Source: an uncultured Candidatus Rokubacteria bacterium (GTDB taxonomy: Bacteria > Methylomirabilota > Methylomirabilia > Rokubacteriales > CSP1-6). Taken from it: a DNA stretch of 64,000 nt. The stretch spans positions 768,001 through 832,000 of the forward strand of contig CAWBMV010000001.1 in the NCBI GenBank assembly GCA_963789955.1, read 5' to 3'. The notes under the pieces were generated by a model. The model searched no databases. It was given only the letters and a program-made list of their open reading frames with translations, and was not told the origin of the DNA. How positions within the stretch are numbered: the stretch's first letter is position 1; every line of letters begins with the position of its first letter. Shown here one piece after another: positions 7,248-59,552 of this stretch. The position numbers and the translations under genes were made by a program.

Positions 7248-9140
7248 GTGGCCAACGCGGAGTCTCTCTGCGAGCGCGCTCATGTGTGGGTCCGGCAGGG
7301 GCGCTACCGCGAGGCCGAGGCGGCGTACCGTGAGGCGGTTCGAAACGACCCCGGCCGGCTGAGAGCCTACCTCGGGCTCGGTCTGGTCCTGCGCCGCCAG
7401 CGCCGGTCGGCGGAAGCCGAGGCCGTCTTCAAGCAGGCGATCCTCCTCCAGCCCGACGGCGTGTCGGCGCATCTCGAGCTCGGCGGCGCGCTCTTCGAGC
7501 AGACCCGCTACGCCGAGGCGGCCGCGGCGTTTCGCGAAGCGATCCGGCTCCGGCCCGACTCTCCTCAGGCGTACGTGAGCCTGGGTCTCTCGCTGACCCG
7601 TCGCGGCGACTACGCGGGCGCTGAGTCCGCGTTCCGCGACGCGTTGACCCTGAAGCCGAACGACGCAATCGCCGGCGCAAACCTGGCGACGGTGCTGCGG
7701 CGGCAACGCAAGGTCACGGCGGCCGAGGCCGTGCACCGCGAGGCGCTGACACGCGCCACGGCGCCCACGACGGTTCGACGCGACCTCGCCGACACGCTCT
7801 ACGAGCAGGCGAAGTATGCCGAGGCCGCGACGGCGTTTCGCGAGGCGCTCTCGCTCACGCCGAGCGACGCGAAGGCGTGGCGGGGTCTGGCCCTGTCGCT
7901 CGAGCGATTGGGTCGACTCGCCGAGGCGACCAGCGCGTATCGCGACGCGATCCGACTGCGGCCCGACGACGCCGACCTGCGCGAGCGGCTCGGCGCCGTG
8001 CTCCGGCGCCGGCATCGCGACGTCGAGGCGGCCGCTGCGTTCCGCGAGTCGCTGCGCCTGCGCCCCGATGCCGCGCGCGCGCACCATCATCTGGCGGTCA
8101 CACTCGAGCGCCTCGGCCGCTACGACGACGCCGCGGCGGCGTTTCGCGAGGCGATCCGGCTGCGGCCGACGTATCTGCACGCGCACCTCGGTCTGGCCGC
8201 GACGTTGCGACGGCAAGGCCGATGGGCGGAGGAAGCCGCGGCGTACGCCGATGCGCTGCAGGTCAGTCCGGACGACGCCGATCTTCACAGCGGCCGAGGC
8301 CTGGCACTCGGCGCCCTCGGCGACTACGCCGAGGCCGCGGCCGCGTTCCGGCGGGCGCTGGCGCTCCGTCCCGACGATGCCGACCTGCACTACGAGCTCG
8401 GGGTCGCGCTCGGGCGACAGGGAAGACATGCCGACGCCGAGATCGCGCTACGCTCTGCGATCCGCGTTCGCCCCGACTCCGTCAAGGCGCGCGCGAATCT
8501 GGCGCTCGGCCTGGGCCGGCAGGGCAAGCACCTCGAAGCCGAGTCGTCGTACCGCGAGGCACTCGCGCTGCGGCCGAACCACGCGACCTTGCGCCGCGGC
8601 CTCGGCGTCGCGCTGTACTGGCAGGGGCGATACGCGGAGGCCGAAACTTCGTTCCGCGAGGCGGTGCGCATCAAGCCCGAGTACGCGCGGGCGCACAGCG
8701 ATCTGGGCGAGATGCTGGCCGAGCAGCACCGCTATCGCGAGTCCGAGGCGGCGTATCGCGCCGTCATCCGGATCACACCCGACTCGCCCGCGCCGCACAC
8801 CGCGCTCGCGGGCGTGCTCCTGGCCCAGCGCCGGTACGCCGATGCCGCGGCCGAGTGTCGCGAGGCGATCCGGCTCAACTTCGACGAGCCGCGGGCGCAC
8901 ATCAACCTGTGGGATTCCCTCGAGTACCTCGGCCACTACGACGAGCTCGAGACCGCGGCGCGCGCGCTCATCGAGCGCAGGCCCGATCACGCCGACGCCC
9001 ATGCGCGGCTCGGGCGCGCGCTGTTCGCCCGCGGACGCTACGCCGAGGCCGCGGCCGCCTACCAGACGGCAGTCGGGCTCCATCCAGAAGTCGCGCGCTT
9101 CCGCGACGGGCTCGCCGCGGCGCTATCGAAGGTCGAGTAG
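7248..9140 (+). CDS. All-TPR repeat protein (about 17-18 repeats)
   Basis: Periodic A-x-x-x-LG...GRYAEAAAAFREAIRLRPD units along the whole 630 aa. Confidence 0.92.
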   Translation: MANAESLCERAHVWVRQGRYREAEAAYREAVRNDPGRLRAYLGLGLVLRRQRRSAEAEAVFKQAILLQPDGVSAHLELGGALFEQTRYAEAAAAFREAIRLRPDSPQAYVSLGLSLTRRGDYAGAESAFRDALTLKPNDAIAGANLATVLRRQRKVTAAEAVHREALTRATAPTTVRRDLADTLYEQAKYAEAATAFREALSLTPSDAKAWRGLALSLERLGRLAEATSAYRDAIRLRPDDADLRERLGAVLRRRHRDVEAAAAFRESLRLRPDAARAHHHLAVTLERLGRYDDAAAAFREAIRLRPTYLHAHLGLAATLRRQGRWAEEAAAYADALQVSPDDADLHSGRGLALGALGDYAEAAAAFRRALALRPDDADLHYELGVALGRQGRHADAEIALRSAIRVRPDSVKARANLALGLGRQGKHLEAESSYREALALRPNHATLRRGLGVALYWQGRYAEAETSFREAVRIKPEYARAHSDLGEMLAEQHRYRESEAAYRAVIRITPDSPAPHTALAGVLLAQRRYADAAAECREAIRLNFDEPRAHINLWDSLEYLGHYDELETAARALIERRPDHADAHARLGRALFARGRYAEAAAAYQTAVGLHPEVARFRDGLAAALSKVE

Positions 9141-10914: not shown

Positions 10915-11742
10915 ATGGCCATCATCGTTGTGTCGCATCAGATGGGAGCGGGCGGCCCGGAGATCGGTATGTCGCTGGCACAGCGACTCGGGTACCGCTA
11001 CGTGAACCAGGAGCTCCTGCTCGACGCGGCCCGTCGCTACGGGCTCGCGGAGGACAAGCTCTCCCACCTCGATGAGTCGAAGCCGACGTTGTTCGAGCGT
11101 TTCGACACCGAGACCCGCCACCACATCACCGTGCTGCAGACGACCTGTCTCGAGTTCGCCGAGGACGACAACTGCGTCCTGATGCGCGGCGGCGGCCAGT
11201 GGCTGCTGCGCGGCGTGCCGCACGTGCTGCGCGCTCGCGTCATCGCGCCGTTCGAGCATCGCGTGAAGCAGTGGGTCAAGCGCACCGCCGAGATGACGGG
11301 TGAGACGCCCAACTATCGCGCGGCCGCCGAGCTCGTGCGCCGCGACGACCTCGAGAAATCCGGGAGAATGCGGTACCTCTACGAGGTCGACATCGCGGAT
11401 CCCACGCTCTACGAGCTGACCGTGAACACCGAGAAGATGAAATACGACGCGGTGGTCGCGGTCCTCGAGGCGCTCACGCGCCGGCCCGACATGGCCACGA
11501 CCGAGGCCGGCAAGCAGATGGTCGCCTCGCGCGCGCTCGCGTCGCGCGTGCAGGTGGCGCTCGCGACTCATCCGGAGACGCGGCGCTATCGGATCACCGT
11601 CGAGGCTCATAGCGGCGTGGTCACGCTCGAGGGAACGGCGGCGCTCGAGCGCGCCGTCGAAGTTGCTCGCTCTGTGCCTGGGGTTCGCGAAGTCAAGACC
11701 CAGCAGGTCGAGATTCCTCCGATTCCTCCCTTCGTCGCTTAG
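10915..11742 (+). CDS. Cytidylate kinase-like family protein with C-terminal BON domain
   Basis: IIVVSHQMGAGGPEIG, DPTLYELTVNT; BON-like ITVEAHSGVVTLEG...VPGVREV. Confidence 0.85.
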   Translation: MAIIVVSHQMGAGGPEIGMSLAQRLGYRYVNQELLLDAARRYGLAEDKLSHLDESKPTLFERFDTETRHHITVLQTTCLEFAEDDNCVLMRGGGQWLLRGVPHVLRARVIAPFEHRVKQWVKRTAEMTGETPNYRAAAELVRRDDLEKSGRMRYLYEVDIADPTLYELTVNTEKMKYDAVVAVLEALTRRPDMATTEAGKQMVASRALASRVQVALATHPETRRYRITVEAHSGVVTLEGTAALERAVEVARSVPGVREVKTQQVEIPPIPPFVA

Positions 11743-11750
11743 CTGGGAGG

Positions 11751-11899
11751 CTGGGGGCGGGCGGAGTCGGGCTCGGGGGGTCCCCCGCGACCCGACTGCT
11801 TTCCTGCGCGACGCGGCGACATCTCGCGCGCTTCGTGCTGGCTATGCTGCCTACACGGGTCGCGGGGAACCCCCCGAGCCCGAGTCCGCCCGCCCCCAG
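11751..11899 (-). repeat. Long inverted-repeat element E1 (REPIN/MITE-like)
   Basis: 44-bp arms at 11751-11794 and 11856-11899 with 2 mismatches. On the minus strand the loop starts GACCCGTGTAGGCAGC, like E4. Confidence 0.85.
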
Positions 11900-12132
11900 G
11901 TTCCGCTCTGACGATGCGGAAGGATTGGTGGGACACGACTGCTGTGCTTGGGCTTGGCTCACTGCGATTTCCGGGCACCGGTACGATCGCGAGCTTGCGA
12001 TCCGTCGCGCGCTAGGGCTGCCGGGCTTAGCGATCGAGCGGATCGGATCGCGGAGTTGTGGCGTAGTTGGTTTCGACGGCGTGAGTTGTCGAGACCGACT
12101 GACGTCGGCTGGGCGTGGTGGGCCGCGGGGGG

Positions 12133-42183: not shown

Positions 42184-43047
42184 ATGAAGGCGCGCAAGGC
42201 GGTCTTCCCCGCCGCAGGGCTCGGCACCCGGTTCCTCCCCGCGACGAAGGCGCAGCCGAAGGAGATGCTCCCGCTCGTCGACAAGCCGATGATCCAGTAC
42301 GTCGTCGAGGAGGCGGTGGCCTCGGGGCTCTCGGAGATCATCATCGTGACCGGCCGCGGTAAGCGGGCGATCGAGGATCACTTCGATTCAGCCTTCGAGC
42401 TCGAGTACTACCTGAACGACCGCGGCAAGACCGACGAGCTCACCCAGATCAAGACTATCTCGGAGCTCGCGTCGGTCTCGTACGTGCGCCAGCGCGAGCC
42501 GCTCGGGCTCGGCCACGCGATCCTCTGCGCGCGCTCGCTCGTCGGTGACGAGCCCTTCGCCGTGTTCCTGGGCGACGATATCATCGCGGCGCAGGTGCCG
42601 TGCATGCGCCAGCTGCTCGACGTGAGCGCTCGCCAGCAGGCGCCGGTGATCGCGGTCCAGCGCGTGCCGCAGCATCAGATCCATCAGTACGGGGTGATCA
42701 AGGCCCGGCAGGTCGAGAGCCGCGTGTACGAGATCCTCGACCTCGTCGAGAAGCCCAAGGCGAAGGACGCGCCGTCGGATCTGGCCATCATCGGCCGCTA
42801 CGTCCTGCCTCCCGAGATCTTCGAGATCCTCGCCGGCACCAAGCCCGACGCCCGCGGCGAGATCCAGCTGACCGACGCGCTCCGCACCTTGCGCGCGCGC
42901 CGGCCGATGTACGCGGTCGAGTTCGAGGGGCGCCGCTACGACACGGGCGACAAGCTCGGCTTCCTCAAAGCCACCGTCGAATTCGCCCTCGCCCGCCCCG
43001 ACCTCGCCGCCGACTTCCGCACCTACCTAAAATCCCTCAACCTCTAA
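42184..43047 (+). CDS. galU: UTP-glucose-1-phosphate uridylyltransferase
   Basis: KAVFPAAGLGTRFLPATKAQPKEMLP, VEKP, GEIQLTDA. Confidence 0.97.
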   Translation: MKARKAVFPAAGLGTRFLPATKAQPKEMLPLVDKPMIQYVVEEAVASGLSEIIIVTGRGKRAIEDHFDSAFELEYYLNDRGKTDELTQIKTISELASVSYVRQREPLGLGHAILCARSLVGDEPFAVFLGDDIIAAQVPCMRQLLDVSARQQAPVIAVQRVPQHQIHQYGVIKARQVESRVYEILDLVEKPKAKDAPSDLAIIGRYVLPPEIFEILAGTKPDARGEIQLTDALRTLRARRPMYAVEFEGRRYDTGDKLGFLKATVEFALARPDLAADFRTYLKSLNL

Positions 43048-43154
43048 CCCCGCCGGGTGCGGGCCGTCCACCGTTCGAAGCCTCCGATCTCTGCTCATGT
43101 TCGAGGCTTTGCTTCTGCTCTAGGCTCTGACTACCTATGTAAAGACCGCGAACG

Positions 43155-43323
43155 CTCCGGAGGTAGGGGGCGGGGGTGGTGGGAGGGGTCTTGGGACCCG
43201 TTCCCTCCAAGGGCCCATGCGCAAGTCGAGCGCCCAGATGGAGCCCAGCCGCCGCGGGCAGCGCGCAAGCGTGCCGCGTGGTCCCAAGACCCCTCCCACC
43301 ACCCCCGCCCCCTACCTCCGGAG
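43155..43323 (+). repeat. Long inverted-repeat element E2
   Basis: Perfect 44-bp arms at 43155-43198 and 43280-43323. Loop closely similar to E3. Confidence 0.9.
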
Positions 43324-43399
43324 TAGCAAGTTTGACTTGACCTCAAGGTTCTGACACACTTTTCGCCACCTTAGTAGTGACCCGAGGGTCACAGACACT

Positions 43400-44606
43400 A
43401 TGCCGAACGCCCCGAAGCGCCCGTTTCACACCGCTGCCGACGCCGACATCAAGAGCGGCGAAGTCTCCGACGTCTACTTCACGCGCACCGTCCAGATCCT
43501 GACCCATCGGAATGACCGGAAGCGCGTCAAGGCCGAGGTCTACGTGAAGTCCCTTCCCGAGGATTGGCAGTGGGGCATCCTCGCGGGAATCGAGGAGGTT
43601 GCCGCGCTCCTCGAGGGCCAGCCGGTCGACGTCTCCGCGATGGACGAGGGCCTCGTGTTCGAGCCCTACCAGCCCGTCCTCCGCATCGAAGGCACCTACG
43701 TCGAATGGGCGAAGTACGAGACGGCGCTGCTCGGACTGCTGTGCCAGGCCTCGGGCATCGCCACGAAGGCGGCGCGCTGCAAGAAGGCGGCGGGCGAGCG
43801 TCAGGTCATCTCGTTCGGCGCGCGCCGCATGCATCCCACTCTGGCGCCGATGATCGAGCGCAACGCCTTCATCGGCGGGTGCGACGGCGTCGCGGTGACG
43901 AAGTCCGCCGAGCTGATCGACGCCGACCCCATGGGGACGATCCCGCACTCGCTCGTCCTGATGATCGGCGACACGGTGGAGGCGCTTCGGGCCTTCGACA
44001 CGGTCGTCGACCCGAAGGTGCGGCGGGTCGCGCTGATCGACACGCTTGCAGGACGAGAAGTTCGAGGCGATCCGGGTCGCCGAGGCCCTCGGCAAGGACC
44101 TCTACGCGGTCCGCCTGGACACGCCGTCGTCGCGCCGAGGCGACTTCTATCGCATCCTCGAAGAGGTGCGCTGGGAGCTCGACCTGCGCGGCTACAACCA
44201 CGTGAAGATCCTCGCCTCCGGCGGTGTCGACGAGTACGAGATCATGGGCCTCAACCCCGTCGCCGACGGCTACGGTGTCGGGACGTCGATCGCCAACGCG
44301 CCGGTGCTCAACTTCGCCCTCGACATCATGGAGATCGAGGGGAAGCCCATGGCCAAGCGCGGCAAGTGGTCCGGCGCCAAGGAAGTCTACCGACGCCAGG
44401 GCACGCGCGAGACCGTCGTCGTCCCGGCGGGGCAGCGTCCGCCCGACGGCGGCGCCTGGGAGTCCGTGCTCAAGCCGCTCGTCCGCGGCGGACGCATCGT
44501 CCGCGATCTGCCGCCCCCGCGCACGATCCGCGACTTCGTCCTCGAGCAGCTCAGGTCGATCCCGCTCGACACGCTGCGACGGCAGGGGCTCCGGCGCGAT
44601 TTCTAG
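43400..44606 (+). CDS. pncB: Nicotinate phosphoribosyltransferase; frameshift near 44045
   Basis: DVYFTRT, SFGARR, GTIPH, LIDT, VRLDT, ASGG, GVGT. Confidence 0.9.
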
Positions 44607-44615
44607 CGCCGAGCT

Positions 44616-45410
44616 ATGTCGGTCCTCGACGAGATCGTCGCCAACACGCGCGCTGAGGTGGCCCGGCGGAAATCCGCGGTGCCGCGCGCGACGCTCGAGC
44701 GCCACTGCGATGCGGCACCCGCCACGCGCGACTTCGAAGGCGCGCTCCGTCCGTCACCGGGCACGGTGCGACTGATCGCCGAGGTGAAGAAGGCCTCGCC
44801 GTCGCGGGGCGTGCTCTCCAGCGGCCTGGATCCGGTGGCCCTCGCCACGACGTACGCGACGCACGGCGCGCACGCGATCTCGGTCCTCACCGATGAGAAA
44901 TACTTCCGGGGAAGCCTCGACGACCTGCGCCGCGTGCGCGCGGCGGTCGACGTCCCGCTCCTGCGCAAGGACTTCACGATCGACGACTACCAGCTCTGGG
45001 AGTCGCGCGCGGCCGGCGCCGATGCGGTGCTCCTGATCGTCTCGATTCTCGAGCCGGCGCGACTCGCCGAGCTGCTCGCCGCGGCGAAAGGCCTCGGGCT
45101 CGCGGCGCTGGTCGAATGCCACACCGCCGCCGAGCTCGACCAGGCGCTCGCGGTCGGGAGCCGCATCGTCGGGATCAACAACCGCGATCTCGCCACCTTC
45201 GAGACCCACATCACGACGACGCTCGAGCTCCTCCCGCTGATCCCGCCCGGTCCGATCGTGGTCAGCGAGAGCGGCTTCTTCACCGCCGCCGACGTCCGCC
45301 GCGTGGTCTCCGCCGGCGCCCACGCAGTCCTCGTCGGCGAAGGCCTCGTCCGCGCCCCAGACATCCCCGCGAAGCTCCGGGAGCTGACGCTGGTGGACGA
45401 TGCGAGCTGA
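44616..45410 (+). CDS. trpC: Indole-3-glycerol phosphate synthase
   Basis: IAEVKKASPS, LRKDF, GINNRDL, SESG. Confidence 0.96.
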   Translation: MSVLDEIVANTRAEVARRKSAVPRATLERHCDAAPATRDFEGALRPSPGTVRLIAEVKKASPSRGVLSSGLDPVALATTYATHGAHAISVLTDEKYFRGSLDDLRRVRAAVDVPLLRKDFTIDDYQLWESRAAGADAVLLIVSILEPARLAELLAAAKGLGLAALVECHTAAELDQALAVGSRIVGINNRDLATFETHITTTLELLPLIPPGPIVVSESGFFTAADVRRVVSAGAHAVLVGEGLVRAPDIPAKLRELTLVDDAS

Positions 45411-45536
45411 GGCGCAAGCAGTACGCGCTGACCGGGCGCCGCGCCAGCAGGCGCGCACCGCGGCGCAAGCAGTACCCAGTGCGCCGTCGCAACGCGAGCC
45501 GGGGGGGAAATGGGGGGGCGTCCCGCCCCACCCATT
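45411..45536 (+). repeat. trpC-trpF spacer element: 14-bp direct repeat plus hairpin
   Basis: GGCGCAAGCAGTAC at 45411 and 45462; hairpin AATGGGGGGGCG-TCC-CGCCCC(A)CCCATT at 45509-45536. Confidence 0.6.
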
Positions 45537-45541
45537 CAACA

Positions 45542-46194
45542 ATGACCGAGTAAAAATCTGCGGCATCACCAACCTCGAGGACGCGAAGACGGCGGTCGAG
45601 GCCGGCGCCGACGCGCTCGGCTTCATCTTCGTCGAGAACACGCCGCGCTTCGTGACACCCGCGCAGGTGGCCCCGATCGTTCGCGCGCTGCCGCCGTTCG
45701 TGACGACGGTCGGCATCTTCTGGGATCACTCGGCCGGTCATATCAAGTCGATCGTGGATGCGTGCGGCCTCGGCGCCTTGCAGTTCCACGGCGACGAGAA
45801 GCCGGAGGACCTCGAAGGCTACTCGGTGCCGGTGATCAAGACGATCAAGCTCCCGGCGCCGTCGGATGATCTCGGCGGCATGCCGCCGTTCACCCCGAGC
45901 GTGAAGTTCTTGCAGTATCGCAACCACGCGGCCGCCCTCCTGCTCGACAGCGCCGCGCGCTGGAGCGAAGGCGAGGCGCGACAGCCGATCGAGTGGTCGA
46001 TCGCGCGCGACCTGGCGAATGCGCGGTGGCGGATCATCCTGTCGGCCGGCCTCACGCCCGAGAACGTCGCCCGCGCGATCGCGACCGCGCACCCGTACGC
46101 GGTGGACGTGAACTCGGGGGTCGAGGCGCAGCCGGGCCGCAAGGATCCGGACAAGGTGTGGCGGTTCGTGGCCGAGGCCAAGGGCGCCCGATGA
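45542..46194 (+). CDS. trpF: Phosphoribosylanthranilate isomerase (start needs a 1-nt correction, or uses ATG 45400)
   Basis: [30 protein letters not shown]. Confidence 0.93.
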
Positions 46195-47390
46195 AGCGGA
46201 CGCTTCCGGACGCGAGCGGACACTTCGGCCGCTTCGGCGGGCGCTTCGTCCCCGAGACGCTCATGGCGCCGCTGATCGAGCTCGAGCAGGCGTGGGCGTC
46301 GGCGAAGCGCGATCGCAAGTTCCAGCGCCGCCTCGCCGGCCTGCTCCAGGACTATGCCGGGCGGCCGACGCCGCTCTACTTCGCCGAGCGGCTCAGCGAG
46401 CAGTGCGGCGGGGCGCGCATCTACCTCAAGCGCGAGGACCTCTGTCATACCGGCGCTCACAAGATCAACAACGTGCTCGGTCAGGCGCTCCTGGCCGCGC
46501 GGATGAACAAGCGGCGGGTGATCGCCGAGACCGGCGCCGGCCAGCACGGCGTGGCGACCGCGACCGCCGCGGCGCTGCTCGGGCTCGAGTGCGAGGTGTA
46601 CATGGGCGCCGAGGACGTCGAGCGCCAGGCGCTCAACGTGTTCCGCATGCGCCTGCTCGGGGCGCGCGTGATCTCGGTCGAGTCCGGCAGCCGCACCTTG
46701 AAGGACGCGATCAACGAGGCGCTGCGCGACTGGGTCACCAACGTGCGGACGACGTACTACCTGCTCGGCTCGGCGCTCGGCCCGCATCCGTACCCGGTGA
46801 TGGTGCGCGACCTCCACTCGGTGATCGGCCGAGAGGCGCGCCGGCAGGCGCGCGCGCGCTTGAAGAAGCTCCCGGACGTGCTGGTCGCGTGCGTCGGCGG
46901 CGGGTCGAACGCCATCGGGCTCTTTCATCCGTTCATCGACGACCGCAAGGTGCGGATCATCGGTGTCGAGCCGGGCGGGGAAGGGATCTCGACCGGCCGG
47001 CACGGCGCGTCGATGAGCGCCGGCGCCGTCGGCGTGCTCCACGGCTGCATGAGCTATCTGCTCCAGAGCGACGACGGGCAGATCGCGACCGCGCACTCCA
47101 TCTCGGCGGGTCTCGACTATCCCGGGGTCGGACCCGAGCACGCCTACTATCGTGACGCGGGCCGTTTCGAGTTCGTCTCGGTCACCGACGCCGAGGCGCT
47201 CGAGGGATTCGAGTCGCTGACGCGGCTCGAGGGGATCATGCCGGCGCTCGAGTCGGCCCACGCCGTCGCCCACGCGATGAAGCTGGCGAAGACCCTGCCG
47301 CGCACGAAGGCGATCGTGATCGGTCTCTCGGGCCGGGGAGACAAGGACGTTCACGTGGTCGCCAAGGCGCTCGGGAAGCAGATCGGATGA
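46191..47390 (+). CDS. trpB: Tryptophan synthase beta chain
   Basis: [31 protein letters not shown]. Confidence 0.98.
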
Positions 47391-48217
47391 GCCGCCTCGA
47401 CGAGACCTTCGCCCGGCTCCGCGCCCGCGGCGAGCGCGCGCTCTTGCCCTACTTCACGGCCGGGGACCCGTCGCTCGCCGACACGCGGCGGCTCGTGATC
47501 GAGGCCGCGCGCCGTGGAGCGGACGTCGTCGAGCTCGGGGTGCCGTTCTCGGACCCGCTGGCCGACGGGCCGGTGATCCAGCGCGCCGGTACGCGCGCCC
47601 TCGCCGGCGGCGCGACGGTGGCGCGGGTGCTCGAGACCGTCGCGGGGCTGCGCGCCGAGATCGACGTGCCCATCGTGCTGCTCACGTACTACAACCCCGT
47701 GCTCGCGTTCGGCTTGAAGGCGTTCGCCCGCACGGCCGTCGACGCGGGTGTCGACGGCGCGATCGTCGCGGACATGCCGCCCGAGGAGAGCGATCCGCTC
47801 GGAACCGAGGCGACCGCGGCCGGCCTCGACCTGGTCTACATGGTCGCGCCGACCTCGACCCTGGCGCGCGTGCGCCTGATCGCGCGGAAGAGCCGCGGGT
47901 TCATCTACGTCGTGTCGCTCACCGGCGTGACCGGCGAGCGCCAGCAGCTGCCGGCCGACATGGCGACGCAGATCGCGGCCATCCGCCGCGAGACGGCGAT
48001 GCCGGTGTGCGTCGGCTTCGGGATCAGCACGCCCGCGCAGGTGGCGACGGTGGGGCGCGTCGCCGACGGCGCGGCCGTCGGCTCGGCGATCGTTCGTCTC
48101 GTCGAGTCGCGCGCCGGCTCGCCCACCCTCGTCGAGGACGTGGGCAAGTTCATCGCCGAGCTCAAGGCGCCGCTGCGCGAGCCTCTCCCGACGTCTCCCA
48201 TCCAGGCGAGGAGGTAG
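47387..48217 (+). CDS. trpA: Tryptophan synthase alpha chain
   Basis: [26 protein letters not shown]. Confidence 0.98.
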
Positions 48218-48223
48218 GTCACG

Positions 48224-49075
48224 GTGGCCTGGTTCAAGCGCAAAGAGGAGTCGAGCGGCAGCAAGGTCATCATCGCCGAAGGCCTGTGGATCAAGTGCGA
48301 CTCGTGCAAGGAGATCATCTACCGGGCCGAGGTGGAGCGCGGCGGGCGCGTGTGCCCGAAGTGCCACTATCCGTTCCGGATCTCCGCCCGCGAGCGGATC
48401 AGCCAGCTGGCCGATGCCGGATCGTTCGAGGAGCGCGAGACCGCGCTGACGACGACCGATCCGCTGAACTTCAAGGACACCAAGAAGTACCGCGAGCGCG
48501 TCCGCGCCGCCGCCCAGAAAACGTCGACCGACGAGGCGGTCGTCTGCGGCATCGCGTCGATCGGCGGTCAGCCGGCCGTGCTCGCCGTGTTCGAGTTCGG
48601 CTTCCTCGGCGGCAGCATGGGCTCGGTCGTCGGCGAGAAGCTCGCCCGCGCGATCGAGCTCGCCATCGACAAGCACCTGCCGGTCCTGATCGTCTCGGCC
48701 TCCGGCGGCGCGCGGATGCAGGAAGGCATCCTCTCGCTGATGCAGATGGCCAAGACGTCGGCCGCGCTCGAGCGGCTGGCCGCGGCGGGGCTGCCGTACA
48801 TCTCGATCCTGACCGATCCGACGACCGGCGGTGTCACCGCGAGCTTCGCGATGCTCGGCGACGTCATCATGGCCGAGCCGCGCGCGCTGATCGGCTTCGC
48901 CGGACCTCGGGTCATCGCCGAGACGATCCGGCAGCCGCTGCCGGAAGGATTTCAGCGCTCGGAGTTCCTGCTGGCGCACGGGCAGCTCGACATGATCGTC
49001 GAGCGCCGCGACCTCAAGGAGACGCTCCGCCGCGTCCTCGCCTTCTTCGCCGCCGAGCCACCCCGATCGGGGTAG
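48224..49075 (+). CDS. accD: Acetyl-CoA carboxylase carboxyltransferase beta subunit
   Basis: Zn finger CDSC...CPKC, GGSMG, SGGARMQEG, GFAGPRVI. Confidence 0.97.
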   Translation: MAWFKRKEESSGSKVIIAEGLWIKCDSCKEIIYRAEVERGGRVCPKCHYPFRISARERISQLADAGSFEERETALTTTDPLNFKDTKKYRERVRAAAQKTSTDEAVVCGIASIGGQPAVLAVFEFGFLGGSMGSVVGEKLARAIELAIDKHLPVLIVSASGGARMQEGILSLMQMAKTSAALERLAAAGLPYISILTDPTTGGVTASFAMLGDVIMAEPRALIGFAGPRVIAETIRQPLPEGFQRSEFLLAHGQLDMIVERRDLKETLRRVLAFFAAEPPRSG

Positions 49076-49082
49076 CCTCTTC

Positions 49083-50400
49083 GTGACGTACGCCGAGGCC
49101 GTCGCCCGGCTGCAGGCACTCCGGGGCGGCGAGCACGCGGGCATGCGCCAGGGCCTCGAGCGGATCGAGGGGCTTCTCGACGCGCTGGGCCGCCCCGAGC
49201 AGCGCTACCGGCTGCGTCCAGGTCGGCGGCACCAACGGCAAAGGCTCCGTGTCGGCGATGCTCGCCGCGATCCTGAAATCCGCCGGGCACCGGGTCGGCC
49301 TCTACACCTCGCCGCATCTGGTGTCGTTCCGCGAGCGCATCCGCGTCGACGGCGAGGCGATCCCGGAAGACGGCGTGGTCGACGGCGTCGAGGCGCTCGG
49401 GACTCTCGTCGCGCGTCTCGACGCGTCGACGTTCGAGGCGACGACGGCGCTCGCGCTCGACCACTTCGCGCGCGAGGCCGTCGACGTCGCCGTCCTCGAG
49501 GTCGGCCTCGGCGGTCGTCTCGATGCGACGACGGTGGGAAATCCTGAGGTCGCCGTGCTCGCGCCGATCGACCTCGACCATCAGGCGGTGCTCGGCAACA
49601 CCATCGAGGCGATCGCGACCGAGAAGGCGGCGATCATCCGCAGCGGCATCGCGATCTCCGCCGCGCAGGCGCCGGCGGCCGCGCGCGTGATCGCGGCGCG
49701 CGCCGGCGCAGTCGGCGTTCCGCTCTTGCTCGAGGGCCGCGACCTGTCGGTCTCCGTGGAAGGTCGCGGGCCCGACGGCCAGCGGCTGACGTGCGCCGGG
49801 CCGGGCTGGTCGCTGACCGGGCTCGAGCTCGCCATGCCCGGGAGCTATCAGCCGTCCAACGCGCTGCTCGCGGTCGCTGCCGCGCGCGAGCTCGGCGCCG
49901 GCGAAGCCGCGATTCGCGACGGGCTGGCGCGCGCATGGTGGCCGGGCCGCTTTCAGGTCGTGCGACGCCGGCAGGGCTTTCTGGTACTGGACGGCGCGCA
50001 CAATCCGGCCGGCGCGCACGCGCTCGCCGTCTCGCTGCGCGACGTCTTCGGCCAGGCGCCGATCACATTCGTCCTGGGCATTCTGGCCGACAAGGACGCC
50101 GCGGGCATCGTCGCCGCGCTCGCGCCGCTCGCGGACCGCTTCATCCTCGTCGCGCCTCCGAGCCCGCGCGCCACCACGCCCGACACGCTCAGAGCCCTCG
50201 TGCCGGCCGCGGTCCGGAACGTCGAGATCGCCGGCTCGCCGGTCGAGGCGCTCGAGCGCGCGGGGCGAGCCGCGACGACTCCGGTGATCTGTGTCGCGGG
50301 CTCGCTGTTCTTGATCGGCGACGTGCTGCGCTATCTGGCCGGGAGCGATAAACCTTGCTCGCTGGAAAAGGGGACTGCTAGCATGAGTCTTCCCTTCTGA
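49083..50400 (+). CDS. folC: Folylpolyglutamate/dihydrofolate synthase; frameshift near 49215
   Basis: GTNGKGS, YTSPHL, EVGLGGRLDAT, DGAHN, GSLF. Confidence 0.95.
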
Positions 50401-50420
50401 CGGGGGCGCTCCCGACTTTC

Positions 50421-52695
50421 ATGACGCGGGCTCGGGCTTCGATCGTCCTTCTCTTGCTCGCGAGCGTCGCGTCGGTGGTCCCCTCCAAGCCCGCCCGCGC
50501 TCAGACGCAGACTCCGACTCCCGCTCAGAGTCAGCCCGCTCCGGCTCAGAGCCAAAGGAAAGTTCAGATATCGGGCAACGAAGTCTCGGTCGTCGCGGAT
50601 CACTTCGAGCAAATCGGCCCCGACAACCTGCTGGTGGCGACCGGCAACGTCGAGGTCACGCGCGGCACGGGACGGCTGCTCGCCGATCGTGTCGAGATCA
50701 ATCGCGAGTCGGGCGACGCCGTGGCGGTCGGGCGGGCGATCTTCTACGACGGCGACGATCGACTCACCGGCCAGCGTATCGAGTACAACATCAAGACCGG
50801 CACGGGCGTCATCTACCAGGGTGAGGTGCACGCGGCGCCCTACTACCGTCTCACGGGCGAGCGCCTGGAGCGCGTGGGCGATAGCGTGTATCAGGTCCGC
50901 CACGGCGTCTTCACGACCTGCGAGGACGAGCCCCCGTCGTGGTCGTTTCACCTGGGTGACGGAACGGCCGACCTCGAGGATTTCGTCTACGGCTGGCACG
51001 TCTCGTTCTGGGTCAAGTCGATCCCGGTCATCCCGTACTTTCCGTTCTTCGCGGGAGCCATCCGAAAGGATCGGCAGTCGGGCTTTCTCCCGCCGCAGTT
51101 CGGGACCTCGACCAAGAAGGGGTTCTTCGCCGAGATCCCGTTCTTCTGGGCGATCTCGGACAGCCAGGACGCCACCGCGCACCTTCGATGCCTACGAGAA
51201 GCGCGGTTTCGGCGGACAGCTCGAGTATCGCTACGTGATGTCGCAGGACCAGCGCGGCAAGCTCAACGGGTTCTTCGTCGACGAGGTTTTCAAGGACGGC
51301 GAGCTTCGAGGATTCGGGAGCATCAAGCACGACTGGCAGATCGCGCCGGGGTTCTCGCTCCGCGGCGACCTCAACGCCGTGTCGGATGACCTCGTGCTCC
51401 GAGACTACGAGACCTCGCTGGAGACGCGCTCAGCCCAGCGCGCGGAGTCGAATCTGTTTCTCACCAAGACGTGGACGAACTGGAACTTCGTGAGCCGCCT
51501 CTACTGGTATCAGGACCTGACGACCGTGCGCCCCATCGAGCTGCAGCGGGTACCGGAGCTCACGCTCACCGGAGTCCGGCAGAACGTGCCAGGGGCGCCG
51601 GGCGCTCTCTATCAGGTGGACACGAGTTTCGTGGAGTTCTTCCGCTGGGTCGGCTCCGATGGGGCCCGTTTCGATCTCCATCCAGTGGTCTCGCGGCCCG
51701 TCCCGATCGCGGGCTACGCGACCGTCACGCCCTTCGTGGGTGGACGCGTCACCGCCTACAGCACGACGGTCACCGACGTTCACGCCCCGGTGGCCGGCGG
51801 CCCCGCGATCGAGGACACCAACGGCGAGCCGCGCGTCCGCGAGCTGTTCGAGTACGGAGCCGACGCCGAGAGCCGCGCCTCGCGCGTCTACGAGGTCGGC
51901 GGCTGGAATGGTCTGGACCGACTCCTGCACACGATCGAGCCGCACGTGCACTACATCCGCATCGTCGGGAATAACTTCTACAGCCTGCCGCTCTGGACGA
52001 ATCAAACGGACCGGATTCCCGAGGCGAACTGGTTCGAGTATTCTTTGACCAACCGGATCCGGGGACGCACGGTCGCTCCCGAGGGCACGGAAGCGGACCG
52101 CCTCGACCTGTTCAAGTTCGTGGTGGCCAGCGCCTATGACATGGAGAACCAGAGCTTCGGCAACGTCGCCGGCGAGCTCACGATCCAGCCGAGCAAGATG
52201 CTGAGGTTTCACAGCGACGCGAGCTACAACGTCCTCGGCGACGGGCTGCAGGCGTATACCACCGACCTGACCCTCGACATCCCGCGACTCGTGGGGAGCG
52301 TCGGCACGCGCTACAGTCGTATGCCCCAGGTGATCGTCCCGTACTTCGTGCAGATCCCGGGCACGTTCAATCCGGGCGACGCGATGCCGTCGAACCAGGC
52401 CACCAACTTTCTCCAGGGGGCGGCCACGGTGGAGCTCTGGCGCAATTTCTTGTTCGGCCGCGTGAAGACGAACTGGGACATCAAGTCGACCAGCGTCGTC
52501 GAGAGTCGCTTCGGCCTGGACATCAGGTTCGACTGCTGGGCGCTGAGCCTCGACTACGTCCGGCGCGCCCCCGATCGACCCGGCCAGAACCCAGACAACG
52601 AGTTCCGCTTCTCGCTCAACCTGCTCGGGCTCGGGAACGTCCTGAGCACCCGGGTCGGAGCGGGGGGGACGGACTCGAACCCGGGGTTCAGATGA
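50421..52695 (+). CDS. lptD: LPS-assembly protein LptD; frameshift near 51180
   Basis: Signal peptide, beta-jellyroll, FTTC, RQSGFLPP, barrel strands and a late DCW. Confidence 0.88.
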
Positions 52696-53790
52696 TTCCG
52701 TTCATCGACCTGACCCGCCAGCACGCGGCGCTCCGAGCGGAGCTGCTCGCCGCCTCCGCGCGTGTGATCGACTCGAGCCAGTTCGTGCTCGGCGCCGAGG
52801 GCAAGGCGCTCGAGCAGGAGCTGGCGGCACTCTGCGGCGTGCCCTGGGCGCTCGGCGTCGGCTCCGGGACGGACGCGCTGCGCCTGACCCTGAGCGCGCT
52901 CGGTGTCGGCCCCGGACACGAGGTCATCACGCCGGCGTTCTCGTTCGTCGCGTCAGCGACCACGATCATGATGACCGGCGCCACGCCGGTCTTCGTCGAT
53001 ATCGATCCGGCGACGTACACGCTCGATCTCGCCGCCACCGAGCGCGCGATCACACCGCGGACGCGCGCGATCATGCCCGTCCATCTCTACGGCCAGTCGG
53101 CGCCGATGGACCGCGTGCTCGAGCTGGCCCGCGCGCATCGGCTGGCCGTGGTCGAGGACGCGGCTCAGGCCGTCGGCGGCGCGTGGGCCGAAAAGCCCGT
53201 CGGAGCCTGGGGCGATGCCGCCTGCCTGTCGTTCTATCCGACCAAGAACCTCGGGGCGTGCGGCGACGGCGGCATGGTGGTGACCGGACGCCAGGACGTG
53301 GCCGAGCGCGTCGCGAAGCTCCGGCACCATGGGGACAGCGGCCGCTACGAGCACGTCGAGCTCGGCTACTGCAGCCGCCTCGACGAGCTGCAGGCGGCGT
53401 TCTTGCGCGTGAAGCTCCGGCGTCTGGCGGAGTGGACGACGGCGCGCCGGCGGATCGCCGGTATGTACCACAAGGGGCTGGCGGGCCTCGATCTCACGCT
53501 GCCGGCCGAGGCGGCGAAGGCGCGTCACGTGTACCATCTCTTCACGGTGCGACACTCGCAGCGAGACGCGCTCGCGAAGCTCCTGGCCGACGACGGGAAT
53601 CTCGACTGCGGTGTATTACCCCCGATCGGTCCCGGATCAGCCGATGTTCGGCGGCGGCGCCGAGCGGCGCTGGCCCGAAGCCTGGCGCGCGTCGCGCGAG
53701 GTCCTGTCGTTGCCCTGCTTCGCGGAGCTCTCCGACGAGGAGGTCGAACGCGTCGTGGCGGGTGTGCGTCGCGCGTGCGAGCGTCTGTGA
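52692..53790 (+). CDS. DegT-family aminotransferase (WbpE-like); frameshift near 53600
   Basis: SGTDAL, VHLYGQ, EDAAQA, SFYPTKNLG. The corrected frame ends at TGA 53790. Confidence 0.9.
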
Positions 53791-55097
53791 CCTCCGCCGC
53801 CGCGACGCTCAAGCAGCGCCTGGCCACGAGCCCGATCGTGGGACTGATCGGCCTCGGATACGTCGGCTTGCCCCTGGCCGTCGCGTTCGCCGAGTCGGGC
53901 GCGACCGTGATCGGCGTCGATCTCGACGCGCGTCGCGTCGCCGCCATCCGCGCCGGCACGAGCTTCATCGAGGACGTGCCGGCCGAGCCCTTGGCGCGTC
54001 TGGTGCGAGACGGTCGCCTCAGCGCCCACGACGACGTGGGAGCGCTGAAGGACGCTGACGCGATCGTCATTTGCGTGCCGACGCCGCTCGGCAAGTCGAA
54101 GGAGCCGGATATCTCCTTCATCGTGGCGGCGGCCGACGCCGTCGCCGCCATCATCCGGCCGGGTCAGCTGGTCGTGCTCGAGTCGACGACCTACCCGGGC
54201 ACGACGCGGGAGGTGCTGGCGCCGCGCTTCCAGGCGAAGGGCGTCGTCGTGGGGCGCGACGTCTTCCTGGCCTTCTCGCCCGAGCGGATCGACCCGGGCA
54301 ATCGGCGCTTCACCTTGCGCGACATTCCCAAGGTGGTCGGCGGCGTGACCGAGGCGTGCCGTGAGCTCGCGATGATGCTGTATGCGCGCGTCGCACCGCA
54401 GGTGGTTCCCGTCTCGGGGCCGGAGACGGCCGAGATGGTGAAGCTCTTCGAGAACACGTTCCGCTCGGTCAACATCGCGCTCGTCAACGAGTTCGCGATC
54501 ATGTGCCGCCGCCTCGGCCTCTCGGTGTGGGAAGTGATCGCCGCCGCGTCGACGAAGCCCTTCGGCTTCATGCCGTTCTATCCCGGTCCCGGCCTCGGCG
54601 GTCACTGCCTGCCTTCCGATCCGCACTACCTGTCGTGGAAGGTGCGACTCGAAGGATACGAGCCGCGCTTCATCACGTTCGCGGACGAGATCAACCGGCG
54701 GATGCCCGAGTACGTCGTGCAGTTGGTGGCCGACGCGCTCAACGATCGGAGCCGGGCCCTGCGCGGCGCGCGCATCCTGGTACTGGGCGTCGCCTACAAG
54801 GCCGGCGTCGCCGACGTGCGTGACTCGCCCGCGCTCGAGATCATCGAGGGCCTCCTGGCCAAAGGCGCGGCCGCCGAGTACCACGACCCCTACGTGGCGT
54901 CGGTGACGGTGGGCACTCGCGCGATGAAGTCGGTCGCCTGGGAAGCGGCCGCGCTCGCGTCGCGCGACGTCGTCTTGATCCTGACCGCCCACGCCAGCTA
55001 CGACTGGGCGACGATCGTCCGCGAAGCCCCCCTCGTGATCGACACGCGCAACGCGACCGGCTCTTTGCCTCCCGCGCCTCACATCATCCGCCTCTAA
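53787..55097 (+). CDS. Nucleotide-sugar (UDP-HexNAc) 6-dehydrogenase
   Basis: GLGYVG, CVPTP, ESTTYPG, GGHC. GTG overlaps the upstream TGA. Confidence 0.92.
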   Translation: MTSAAATLKQRLATSPIVGLIGLGYVGLPLAVAFAESGATVIGVDLDARRVAAIRAGTSFIEDVPAEPLARLVRDGRLSAHDDVGALKDADAIVICVPTPLGKSKEPDISFIVAAADAVAAIIRPGQLVVLESTTYPGTTREVLAPRFQAKGVVVGRDVFLAFSPERIDPGNRRFTLRDIPKVVGGVTEACRELAMMLYARVAPQVVPVSGPETAEMVKLFENTFRSVNIALVNEFAIMCRRLGLSVWEVIAAASTKPFGFMPFYPGPGLGGHCLPSDPHYLSWKVRLEGYEPRFITFADEINRRMPEYVVQLVADALNDRSRALRGARILVLGVAYKAGVADVRDSPALEIIEGLLAKGAAAEYHDPYVASVTVGTRAMKSVAWEAAALASRDVVLILTAHASYDWATIVREAPLVIDTRNATGSLPPAPHIIRL

Positions 55098-55194
55098 GTG
55101 CCAGAACCGCCCGAACAGCGCATCGTCCGTGGGCCGGGCATCACCGCGCACTACGTCGCGTGCAGCGCCTCGCCGTGCTCCGAAGTCGCGAAAC

Positions 55195-55368
55195 CGGGGG
55201 CACCGGGGGAGGCGGAGGCGAGCGGGAGGGGTCGAAGGGACCCGTTCCCTTCAAGTGTCAGCGGACGTCGCGCGCCCGGATGGAGCCCAGCCGCCGCGGA
55301 GCAGCGCACGCGTGCCGCGTGGTCCTCTCGACCCCTCCCGCTCGCCTCCGCCTCCCCCGGTGCCCCCG
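55195..55368 (+). repeat. Long inverted-repeat element E3
   Basis: Perfect 41-bp outer arms at 55195-55235 and 55328-55368, plus an inner GGACC/GGTCC pair. Loop similar to E2. Confidence 0.9.
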
Positions 55369-55396: not shown

Positions 55397-56275
55397 ATGC
55401 TGAGAGCGATCGTGGTCTCGATGCGCCCGCGCCAGTGGGTGAAGAATCTGTTCGTCTTCGCGGGCCTGATCTTCGCGCAGCGTCTGTTCACCGGCGCAGC
55501 GTGGACCGCGCTCGCGGCGTTCGCGATCTTCTGCGGGCTGTCGGGCGCGATCTATCTGGTCAACGACGTCGCCGACCGCGAGCGGGATGGCCTGGATCCG
55601 CGCAAGCGGACGCGGCCGATCGCCGCCGGGCGGCTCCCGGTCGGGGTGGCCATCGCGGCGGCCGTCGTGCTCGTCGTCGTCGGCCTCGTACTCTCGGCGC
55701 TGCTGTCGCGCGCGTTCTTCGTCACCGCGCTCGCCTACGTCATCTTGTTGACCGCCTACTCGGCCTGGCTCAAGCACATCGTCATCGTCGACGCGATCGT
55801 CGTCGCCGGCGGGTTCGTGCTGCGCGCGGTCGCGGGCGCCGTGGCCATCGATGTCGAGATGTCGGGCTGGTTGCTCATCTGCACGATCCTGCTCGCGCTC
55901 TTCCTGGCCCTCGGCAAGCGCCGTTACGAGTACGTGGCCCTGGACCAGGACGCCGTGCGGCACCGGCCGATCCTCGCCGAATACAGCCCGGCGCTGCTGG
56001 ACCAGATGATCGCCGTCGTGACCGCGTCCACCGTGACCGCCTATGCGCTCTACACGATGTCGCCGGAGACCGTGGCCAAGTTCCACACGCACTGGCTGCC
56101 GGCGACGTTGCCCTTCGTGCTGTACGGGATCTTTCGATATCTCTACCTGTTGTATCAGCGGCGCCTCGGGGGCAACCCGTCGGAGCTCCTGTTGAGCGAC
56201 CGCGCGCTCCTGATCAATACGATCTGCTGGATCTGCGCGGTTCTACTGATCATTTACGGCGCGCGCCTAGAGTAA
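55397..56275 (+). CDS. UbiA-family decaprenyl-phosphate phosphoribosyltransferase-like protein
   Basis: RPRQWVKN, YLVNDVAD, KRTRPIAAG, LKH, ALGKR. Confidence 0.88.
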   Translation: MLRAIVVSMRPRQWVKNLFVFAGLIFAQRLFTGAAWTALAAFAIFCGLSGAIYLVNDVADRERDGLDPRKRTRPIAAGRLPVGVAIAAAVVLVVVGLVLSALLSRAFFVTALAYVILLTAYSAWLKHIVIVDAIVVAGGFVLRAVAGAVAIDVEMSGWLLICTILLALFLALGKRRYEYVALDQDAVRHRPILAEYSPALLDQMIAVVTASTVTAYALYTMSPETVAKFHTHWLPATLPFVLYGIFRYLYLLYQRRLGGNPSELLLSDRALLINTICWICAVLLIIYGARLE

Positions 56276-58780: not shown

Positions 58781-59505
58781 GACTCCTGCTCGCGCGTCAC
58801 GGACAGTCCCTGTGGAACGAGGTGCGCAAGTTCCAGGGCGCCAACGACGTGGGCCTGTCCGATCTCGGCCGAACGCAGGCCGCCGCCCTCGGGAGTGCCT
58901 TGCGCAGCGGCTATCGCGTGGCGGCCGCGTACGTGAGCCCGATGTGCCGCGCGCGCGACACGGCGGAGATCGCGCTGAAGGGGACGGGGATTCCGCTGAC
59001 GGCGATTCACGAGCTGCGCGAGCTCTCGCTCGGCGAGTGGGAGGGCTTCACCGTCGACGAGGTGCGCTCCCGCGAGGGTAATCCGTATCTCACGTGGGTC
59101 CGCTCACCGCTCGACTATCCGCCGCCCGGCGGCGAGCCGCTGCCCGACGTCTGCGCCCGCGTGCTGCAGGCGATCGATCGCATCGCCGCGAACCATCGCA
59201 ACGGTGAAGACGTCCTCGTCGTGGCCCACGGCGGCGTGATCAGCGTCTATCTCTGTCACCTCCTCGGCATCTCGTTCAACTCCCTCTGGCGCATGCGCAT
59301 CGACAACTGCTCCCTCACGATCGCCCGCCCCCCCCGCCTCGTGTCCGTGAACGACACCGCGCACCTCCCTCCGATGCACGGAACTAGGTGGTTTGAGGTG
59401 TCCGAGAGCGGGGGGCGGCCGGTGGGGGTGCCCCCCTCGACCCGTGTAGTCAGCGTCGACCCGGCGCCCCGCGCCCGGAAAAGAAACGCCGCGAGTCGTG
59501 GCTAG
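58777..59505 (+). CDS. Histidine phosphatase family protein (as read, the tail runs into element E4)
   Basis: ARHGQS, GEWEG, GGE, VAHGG, NDTAHL. Confidence 0.88.
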   Translation: MRLLLARHGQSLWNEVRKFQGANDVGLSDLGRTQAAALGSALRSGYRVAAAYVSPMCRARDTAEIALKGTGIPLTAIHELRELSLGEWEGFTVDEVRSREGNPYLTWVRSPLDYPPPGGEPLPDVCARVLQAIDRIAANHRNGEDVLVVAHGGVISVYLCHLLGISFNSLWRMRIDNCSLTIARPPRLVSVNDTAHLPPMHGTRWFEVSESGGRPVGVPPSTRVVSVDPAPRARKRNAASRG

Positions 59506-59552
59506 CGTGGTCGAGGGGGGCACCCCCACCGGCCGCCCCCCGCCTCCGACAC
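59398..59552 (+). repeat. Long inverted-repeat element E4
   Basis: Perfect 35-bp arms at 59408-59442 and 59509-59543, with imperfect extension to GTGTC/GACAC. Confidence 0.88.

Follow-up and report, generated by a model that had tools for sequence, protein, structure and literature searches.

Long hairpins with copy-specific arms and a conserved loop in a Candidatus Rokubacteria genome: plausible aged relatives of IS630-type MITEs

MITEs of the RUP (Streptococcus pneumoniae, IS630-Spn1), Correia/NEMIS and ERIC kinds are, according to excerpts of PMC2229807, short, non-coding, intergenic and multicopy, and the RUP/Correia kind combines cognate-IS630-like ends and a TA/CTAG target with a long stem near gene ends; the family of hairpin elements analysed here likewise displays these traits, with CTAG as its probable target. 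The target of IS630 is CTAG, with a 2-bp duplication (PMC2577343). REP/REPIN sequences, GTAG/CGTC repeats (PMC3733652) and NTS/SRM sequences (PMC11893778) are also palindromic, are also found just behind stop codons and also carry strand-specific hairpin motifs. A further likeness is to hairpins shaped by template switching, for which excerpts of PMC8794818 and PMC8604942 describe compensated changes spanning several bases, stems that become more perfect, and inverted loops, as seen in the present elements.

The stretch of DNA analysed (the window, 64,000 nucleotides) contains four long hairpins, E1 to E4, of which E2 and E3 are the main subject here. These elements, their parts and the adjoining genes are located as follows.

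11746..11904, minus strand: E1, same stem architecture with core B; loop starts TGTAGGCAG (minus strand)
42184..43047, plus strand: GalU-like nucleotidyl transferase, host gene upstream of E2, outside the element
43115..43147, plus strand: possible decayed left IS630-type end of E2, weak, with CTAG at 43120-43123
43155..43198, plus strand: E2 left arm, G-rich, 44 bp
43199..43279, plus strand: E2 core A, the conserved loop; the folded strand is the plus strand
43280..43323, plus strand: E2 right arm, C-rich
43328..43360, minus strand: possible decayed right IS630-type end of E2 (p=0.011)
43400..44606, plus strand: nicotinate phosphoribosyltransferase, host gene downstream of E2, in two frames in the assembly
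52692..55097, plus strand: protein with DegT aminotransferase and UDP-glucose dehydrogenase domains, host gene upstream of E3
55195..55242, plus strand: E3 left arm, 48 bp, outer 41 perfect
55243..55320, plus strand: E3 core A
55321..55368, plus strand: E3 right arm; terminal-repeat remnant on neither side of the element
55397..56275, plus strand: UbiA prenyltransferase, host gene downstream of E3
59408..59543, plus strand: E4, same stem architecture with core B; loop starts CGTGTAGTCAG

The arms of E2 are 44 bp long and 100% complementary, and those of E3 extend over 48 bp with two mismatches, both adjoining the loop, and a perfect outer 41 bp, confirming the long perfect arms described in the initial annotation. 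The conserved interior reported for the two elements is borne out as well: a 21-mer is common to E2 (43237) and E3 (55279), GACCCGTTCCCT lies at 43195 and 55239, and GCGTGCCGCGTGGTCC at 43269 and 55310. The small GGGTC-loop-GACCC hairpins are present in both, although they are built from, and share, the bases of the long stem's inner end. Folding z-scores are -14.9 for E2 and -11.6 for E3, with equally good folding in 0 of 200 shuffles. E1 and E4 had been counted as further copies; the G-rich long stem is indeed common to them, but their loop is a different one (core B). E1 is located directly behind the stop codon of a gene ending at 11742.

Further copies were sought in the genome and 36 with core A were recovered, E2 and E3 included (35-37 by search), and the 6.77-Mb genome holds about 68 elements when all four cores are counted, which does not reach the hundreds per genome that had been extrapolated. 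The element family is present in 40 of 251 genomes. Among 35 copies of this genome, 36 of 85 core-A columns are invariant where 0.8 would be expected, and the core search of this genome returned no decayed core in the range from E=3e-13 to E=1.8. GTAG stands at the start of core B and CGTC at that of the opposite strand of core C, and core A is untagged; a C-GNA-G three-base loop is found in 125 of 138 core-C copies, among those listed. Viral contigs gave no matches to core A, core C or the IS630-type end, and two matches to the IS1380-type end, both without a core. The neighbours, with contexts taken from protein matches, are unrelated host genes, many of them for ABC transporters, and TAG terminates 49 of 93 convergent neighbours versus 31% of genes. 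A replication-strand bias was rejected, the orientation of elements relative to approximate gene calls being mixed along contig C1. A protein-coding remnant was also rejected, the synonymous excess falling in inconsistent frames and third positions being invariant.

Young core-A copies in other genomes are MITEs of about 250 bp with ends that match an IS630 transposon end, specifically the downstream end as found in IS630 elements from the same order, and the cognate transposase matches NF033545 at 241 bits (cut-off 100). IS630-type ends are carried by 32 of 170 core-A elements. Ends of IS1380 type occur on 24 of 141 core-C elements and on three core-A elements; those of core C match an IS1380 element from the same genus at its ends (CTAG and about 16 terminal bases), the transposase of which scores 263 bits with NF033539 (cut-off 180). 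Among core-B elements, 49 of 50 are without known ends, and a search for an outer end found none. Of 30 copies fetched from five genomes of other genera, 16 bear IS630-type ends, and the median arm divergence between loci of the same genome is 0.09 there versus 0.32 here. CTAG flanks most young copies at both ends. Empty orthologous sites, the search for which had been proposed initially, were found in relatives, with a single CTAG in three of six readable comparisons and TA in one more; the duplication is not base-exact, since the empty-site flanks are only 77-93% identical. Measured against IS630-type MITEs, the elements are short, non-coding with no consistent coding frame, multicopy and represented by filled and empty alleles, and the terminal inverted repeats of young relatives match those of a cognate IS630; the arms, at 81% G+C, depart from the A+T richness of such MITEs.

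Not one of this genome's 35-37 core-A copies has a recognisable terminal end, and the cognate IS630 and IS1380 transposases were not found in the genome, which is 87% complete; the IS630 query was found in three of four congeners. End-less copies as a group retain a faint end trace at the expected spacing (p 0.001-0.04 versus intergenic DNA; p 0.02-0.19 versus shifted flanks). The score of the E2 left-end remnant at the expected spacing gives p=0.006 versus element-free intergenic windows, and the right-end remnant is ambiguous because it coincides in part with a promoter-like stretch that hairpin-less alleles retain as well. E3 has no terminal-repeat remnant at the expected spacing on either side (p=0.93 and 0.11), and it is presumed to be a descendant of an IS630-type MITE, not a complete MITE. 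At one core-C locus, ends at several stages of decay are found with the core intact.

These elements are, in our judgement, probably aged MITEs, with E2 and E3 having had their arms repaired from each other in place and their single-strand core held under selection. In the young form, core A lies between an imperfect G-rich arm and a C-rich arm, and this unit is enclosed by two IS630-type ends, the first of about 30 bp, and outside these by CTAG on either side; judging from these sequence features, an IS630 transposase would move it in trans into the TA within CTAG. Because CTAG is an uncommon sequence here, with a TAG stop codon at one in three of its sites, such insertion would leave elements positioned behind genes. 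Core C would spread likewise on IS1380-type ends. The ends would then decay after insertion, a step apparent at the one core-C locus, weak for E2 and unseen for E3. The arms would keep mutating at about the neutral rate, with mismatches fixed by arm-to-arm copying (template switching or hairpin repair), and this would render the arms copy-specific yet better paired, with occasional inversion or deletion of the loop. Selection on the one-strand fold may be what maintains the observed constraint on the core, which would most likely be a putative protein-binding tip atop a long stem. The near-unchanged loop beside a changing but paired stem suggests a leftover with its own function, and it is probably as an intergenic RNA-end or insulator structure that the host retains the hairpin. 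Of the two options first offered, a mobile element with arms re-templated from each other is the better-fitting one. The reversal of the usual MITE pattern that had been noted, with variable arms and a kept loop, stands for E2 and E3, but age accounts for most of this contrast: in young relatives the arms are near-identical, and outside the G-rich arms lie terminal repeats of IS630 or IS1380 type that are conserved.

Core-A arm pairing is 0.95 here, 0.89 in other end-less copies and 0.84 in young copies (p=6e-4); for core C, the gain in pairing with age is weak. Across 64 independent orthologous pairs, arm divergence is about that of third codon positions, and the compensated changes number 216 transversions, 118 transitions and 36 indels, next to 136 one-sided changes. 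The compensated counts are inflated and leave one-step copying unproven, since the seven closest pairs (>=97.7%) have one-sided arm changes only and two pairs at 95-97% are poorly aligned. At orthologous sites the element can be lost, inverted or found with another core, and core-less arms, loop inversions and one nested inversion were observed, the inversions being seen in short-read assemblies, where they may be artefacts. G·T versus A·C mismatches stand at 27:3 on one strand in this genome, and the G·T bias follows the element rather than the neighbour mRNA (53:25 for convergent and 32:9 for co-directional neighbours). Core A contains a 5-bp helix tolerating wobble changes only, on the folded strand; its consensus fold is weak (-2.6 kcal/mol), and core B is without a consensus fold.

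It seems unlikely that the elements are instead a REP/REPIN-like module in their own right, spread as ssDNA by a putative HUH- or Ssn-type enzyme, some subfamilies having gained IS630 and IS1380 ends afterwards and the majority of copies here having been end-less throughout. Such a module would accommodate the finding of core A with both kinds of ends (32 IS630-type, 3 IS1380-type), the core swaps at orthologous sites, the C-GNA-G loop of core C, a motif especially stable in DNA (PMC13037366), and the resemblance of the core-B start and of the other strand of core C to the tagged REPs of PMC3733652. It would also suit the asymmetry of end-less copies, for which the median gene distance is 10 nt on one side and 99 nt on the other, so lopsided that plain end decay is an insufficient explanation; end-bearing copies lie 44 and 43 nt from the genes on their two sides. 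However, Y1/RAYT (PF01797) is absent from all 17 genomes of the genus (this genome and 16 of 16 congeners) and NF047646 from five of five, no element is present at 10 Y1 loci of other genera, GIY-YIG (Ssn) matches are mostly UvrC-sized with three short ones lacking an element nearby, no element is adjoined by an Ssn-like gene, and the published Ssn motif (the SRM pattern of PMC11893778) occurs in 0 of 361 elements. End-bearing copies moreover belong to several lineages and have one spacing in common (7 changes, on a core tree that is weak and poorly resolved), end-less copies are inherited vertically at orthologous sites, and no recurring unexplained gene lies beside 90 core-A or about 100 core-B/C loci. 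IS110, proposed as a partner alongside RAYT/IS200-Y1, proved equally unlinked to the elements, with none at the non-coding end of 30 loci and one chance neighbour (L283). In this genome, PF00078 reverse transcriptase (retron) was not found, PF02371 and DUF559 were not found linked, and ten integrase matches were obtained, six of which were fetched and had no new long hairpin; IS91 was found in one of five genomes with no element nearby. An integron attC identity was rejected, as there are no GTT/AAC ends and the neighbours are syntenic host genes.

A multicopy host ncRNA family, with a promoter for each copy on the folded strand, often antisense to the abutting gene, and a stem under compensatory selection, appears quite improbable. 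In favour of it, and of the structured-RNA option of the initial annotation, one strand clearly matters: the mismatch bias tracks the element strand and not the neighbour mRNA, the core-A helix admits only wobble changes on the folded strand, and cores are conserved at orthologous sites. On the other side, core A has no double-sided covariation, its fold is weak and that of core B is missing; compensated transversions exceed transitions, contrary to a G·U route, frequent loss and core swaps fit single RNA genes poorly, and the IS ends are left unexplained. An oriented, -10-box-like CTA(G/A)GC motif lies upstream in 299 end-less copies 69 times forward and 11 times reverse, but intergenic DNA remote from any element contains it another 185 times, and a sigma-70 consensus promoter was looked for at E2 and not found. 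Rfam 15 gave no real match to a described family, with only a tRNA above the gathering threshold in the window and, at four other loci, one core-B hairpin matching an Epstein-Barr virus intron hairpin (42.5 vs 41.8 bits), which was read as a generic long-stem match. A hammerhead was rejected, one subfamily having a GATGA/GAA loop on the stem but not the catalytic positions, and resemblances to SRP, HDV, group II intron D5 and riboswitches were dropped. Four of 21 RNA runs were compared, all as assembled contigs, which yield neither strand nor ends nor level; in one run, seven contigs part from the window at 55324 and continue into different C-rich sequence, as would be expected of other element copies. 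That the perfect arms arose artificially during assembly or library preparation, through fold-back chimeras or polishing, is scarcely credible: some relatives do have half elements and contig breaks at elements, one 92-bp inverted flank duplication was seen (L025) and at least one likely indel error lies near E2/E3 in the assembly, yet the family occurs across 40 of 251 genomes with separately paired arms at orthologous sites and strand-specific mismatches.

It is conceivable, though doubtful, that the cores are swappable recognition tips for a candidate single-strand-acting enzyme, which would nick the hairpin, copy arm to arm and invert or exchange cores. If so, the system would have two tiers, with DDE ends from two unrelated families serving long-range spread and a self-repairing, swappable hairpin cassette outliving the ends and being taken over by the host.

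Several features set the elements here apart from MITEs of the RUP/Correia kind: they are GC-rich, their two ends both resemble one and the same IS end, the downstream one, most copies have lost these ends yet retain the inner stem and core, the inner arms are copy-specific, and several cores and two transposase families share one architecture. Young core-C copies share CTAG and about 16 terminal bases with one IS1380-family element (NF033539) and have no internal similarity to it beyond chance; by term search, IS1380 goes unmentioned in the main text of a 2024 MITE review (PMC10969869). Compared with REP/REPIN and NTS/SRM sequences, the elements are much longer and have variable arms around a conserved loop, no RAYT or Ssn partner was found, and GTAG- or CGTC-like tags are confined to cores B and C. 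The template-switch cases in the excerpts are rRNA, microRNA and yeast genes, whereas the present hairpins are repeats dispersed in bacterial genomes, their stems 40-48 bp long and their loop 80 nt. The comparative data give the whole life history of a bacterial MITE from young end-bearing to old end-less copies, making testable both the maintenance of long hairpins by template switching versus two-step compensation and the conversion of MITE interiors into functional elements once mobility is lost, and they warn against taking every conserved loop on a covarying stem that a scan turns up for an RNA gene.

The long-hairpin elements of the window share a G-rich stem and differ in their loops (cores A to D):

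11746..11904, minus strand: element E1, core B
43155..43323: element E2, core A
55195..55368: element E3, core A
59408..59543, plus strand: element E4, core B

The initial annotation assigned perfect arms of 41-44 bp to E2 and E3, which holds for E2 (44 bp, perfectly paired) and for the outer 41 bp of E3, whose full arms span 48 bp with two mismatches adjoining the loop. The interior words said to be shared by the two were found in place, and both elements, with host genes on either side, fold far better than shuffled sequences. The Rfam search of the window that it had proposed returned tRNA only, with no match for the hairpins. A profile of the loop identified 36 copies of core A in the 6.77 Mb of this genome, and a scan for long inverted repeats revealed a common architecture, in which the left arm is G-rich and about 40 bp long, around three further loops: core B (17 copies, E1 and E4 among them), core C (9) and core D (4); two additional elements lie beyond these counts. 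E1 and E4 thus belong with E2 and E3 by stem architecture but not by loop, and the density, about one element for every 100 kb, falls short of the hundreds of copies extrapolated earlier.

Within the phylum, core A was present in 40 of 251 genomes, which all belong to one family, and in 16/16 congeners at 6-43 copies each; among 41 genomes, cores B and C were confined to the genus, in 16/16 and 10/16 congeners, respectively. Among the matches listed in a GTDB pattern scan (at least 80 records), 71 had Rokubacteria or Methylomirabilota in the title, 7 Binatia and 2 uncultured bacterium. Viral contigs searched for cores A and C held neither; one carries a 190-bp IS1380-type MITE without these cores (L466:2501-2691). 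Elements frequently lie back to back, 60-170 nt apart with their 5′ sides always facing (C16:55452, C23:27813, C34:274768, C34:1056957 and C6:254691 in this genome, and in many relatives). Two other repeat families are present in this genome, one of paired 18-24 bp palindromic motifs about 175 nt apart and apparently intragenic (C1:23279, C4:37281, C8:45024, C13:38422), the other MITE-like, of about 125 bp with terminal repeats of 18-27 bp (C12:279676, C20:112782, C32:4221, C34:899130).

The hairpins are real, and we regard them as an aged MITE family whose ends have been lost, whose arms are self-matched and whose cores are conserved and swappable. The family very likely spread on IS630 and IS1380 ends; E2 and E3 would, with reasonable probability, descend from end-bearing copies. 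When the flanks of copies from other genomes were aligned copy against copy, an outer inverted repeat bounded by CTAG appeared beyond the G-rich stem. The 30-bp end of core A matches 1.14-kb IS630 elements of the same order at their downstream end (protein NF033545), and an IS1380 element from the same genus has ends that match the core-C end (NF033539). Among 361 distinct elements, IS630-type ends occur in 32 of 170 core-A copies and IS1380-type ends in 3, IS1380-type ends occur in 24/141 core-C copies, and 49/50 core-B copies have neither; similarity between element interiors and the insertion sequences is no greater than chance. IS630 is described as targeting CTAG with a 2-bp duplication in the consulted part of PMC2577343, and in 3 of the 6 comparisons with this genome that could be read, the empty site is marked by one CTAG. 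CTAG occurs at about one-tenth of its expected frequency, with 710 of 2114 sites at predicted stops, and convergent neighbours end in TAG in 49 of 93 non-independent rows versus 31% of genes. No copy in this genome has recognisable ends, and no match to either of the two cognate transposases, IS630 or IS1380, was found in it. Weak end remnants flank E2 on both sides at the expected spacing (p=0.006, 0.011); none was found there for E3, and end-less copies as a group give a faint remnant signal at that spacing. L478:1500-1745 is an element of 245 bp in which IS630-type ends and a G-rich stem of the same kind enclose a fifth, unrelated core. An IS110 element lies directly beside a core-C hairpin element (L283:2510-3900) and another interrupts an end-bearing core-A copy (L489); IS110 may possibly target the hairpin repeats.

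The comparison of orthologous sites proposed in the initial annotation revealed empty sites; the upstream gene was confirmed at some but not all of the loci counted here. At the E2 site (15 loci), core A is forward in 5 and inverted in 1, core C and a B-like core occupy 1 each, 3 loci are empty, and in 4 the element is partial or truncated by the end of a contig; at the E3 site (16 loci), core A is forward in 5 and inverted in 1, while 6 loci are partial and 4 are empty or unclear, in 2 of which the genes abut. Swaps of B with C and of A with C occur at other sites. Orthologous copies group together in the core tree with weak support, which indicates inheritance in place.

Orthologous copies were compared in 64 independent pairs totalling 2297 aligned bp, and arm divergence follows the third-position divergence of the neighbouring gene, at 0.08/0.05, 0.17/0.18, 0.20/0.23 and 0.24/0.31 (arm/gene) in four identity bands. 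Compensated arm changes comprise 216 transversions, 118 transitions and 36 indels, alongside 136 changes on one side only, counts to be read with the poor alignment of G-rich arms in mind. Since transversions and indels lack a G·U intermediate, they favour copying between arms, one of two options in the initial annotation, and loop inversions, one nested inversion and core deletions point in the same direction; however, the seven closest pairs have one-sided changes only, which counts against it. The nested inversion is a core-C element in which the inner part is flipped with respect to the outer (C1:189416-189563 versus L347), and the long G-rich hairpins at C26:5366-5421, whose homologous site holds a core-A copy, and C34:374453-374545 have lost their cores. 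Template switching has been described with compensated arm changes and loop inversions in the consulted portions of PMC8794818 and PMC8604942, and repair of the arms from each other after insertion is a fairly likely mechanism.

In five genomes of four other genera, 16 of 30 fetched copies (from 47 matches) bear IS630-type ends. Their median arm divergence between loci of one genome is 0.09, versus 0.32 here, so the copy-specific arms of the initial annotation develop after insertion. Core-A arm pairing is 0.95 here (old, end-less copies), 0.89 in old copies elsewhere and 0.84 in young, end-bearing copies, with longest perfect runs of 35, 23 and 14 bp, and G-skew is greater in old copies; core C shows these trends in pairing and skew weakly or not at all. 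At one core-C locus the ends are intact, eroded or nearly gone with the core unchanged throughout.

That the core itself is held by selection we consider highly probable. Of 85 columns compared across 35 core-A copies in this genome, 36 are invariant (0.8 expected at a uniform rate) and 19 vary in at least a quarter of copies; no partly decayed core was found in this genome. Isolated stem mismatches here favour G·T over A·C by 27:3 on the strand reading ATGGAGCCCAG, in both gene contexts, and constraint on the core acts on a single strand. Coding potential was not supported. In core A, a possible helix of 5 bp and a short hairpin on the 3′ side have wobble-only changes, and no double-sided covariation was found. 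Core C has real covariation and carries a C-GNA-G loop in 125/138 copies, a motif whose stability in DNA greatly exceeds that in RNA (PMC13037366).

End-less copies are lopsided, at a median of 10 and 99 nt from neighbouring gene ends versus 44 and 43, and have an oriented CTA(G/A)GC upstream. Decay alone cannot explain this, which keeps two rivals alive, a REP/REPIN-like element spread by an HUH- or Ssn-type enzyme and a multicopy host non-coding RNA family; Ssn was tested as a partner with a negative result. The account combining spread on transposon ends, descent, arm repair and core selection is, taken whole, somewhat better than an even bet. The most likely role is a putative protein-bound single-strand tip on a stem tolerated or used by the host at gene ends, and a comparable role has been reported for the RNAs of Correia and ERIC elements (PMC2229807, consulted in part). 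A less likely possibility is that a new enzyme acting on single strands uses the cores as substrates.

Beside E2, positions 43328-43375 hold a promoter-like TTGACT, 17 nt and CACACT, kept in orthologues and similar to a decayed IS630 end; this stretch may represent a promoter derived from the end of a transposon. The nicotinate phosphoribosyltransferase gene (43400-44606) is split into two frames near 44048, probably by an assembly indel, because relatives have a single frame and assembled contigs from three RNA runs, the form of all RNA evidence here, are one base shorter there. A single 801-aa ORF (52692-55097) is an apparent fusion of DegT aminotransferase and UDP-glucose dehydrogenase, and a gene at 7284-9140 has at least 10 repeat units of 102 bp, TPR-like by spacing.

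Mostly open-access articles, without supplements, yielded nothing relevant on Rokubacteria with inverted repeats or MITEs, and in similarly open general MITE literature neither titles nor abstract openings named an element of this kind. Cores B and C show a likeness to REP/RAYT, CGTC repeats and Ssn motifs (PMC3733652, PMC11893778), but the defining tests of those systems, as given in the consulted parts of these reports, failed. Of the systems described, RUP with IS630-Spn1 comes closest, as portrayed in the consulted part of PMC2229807.
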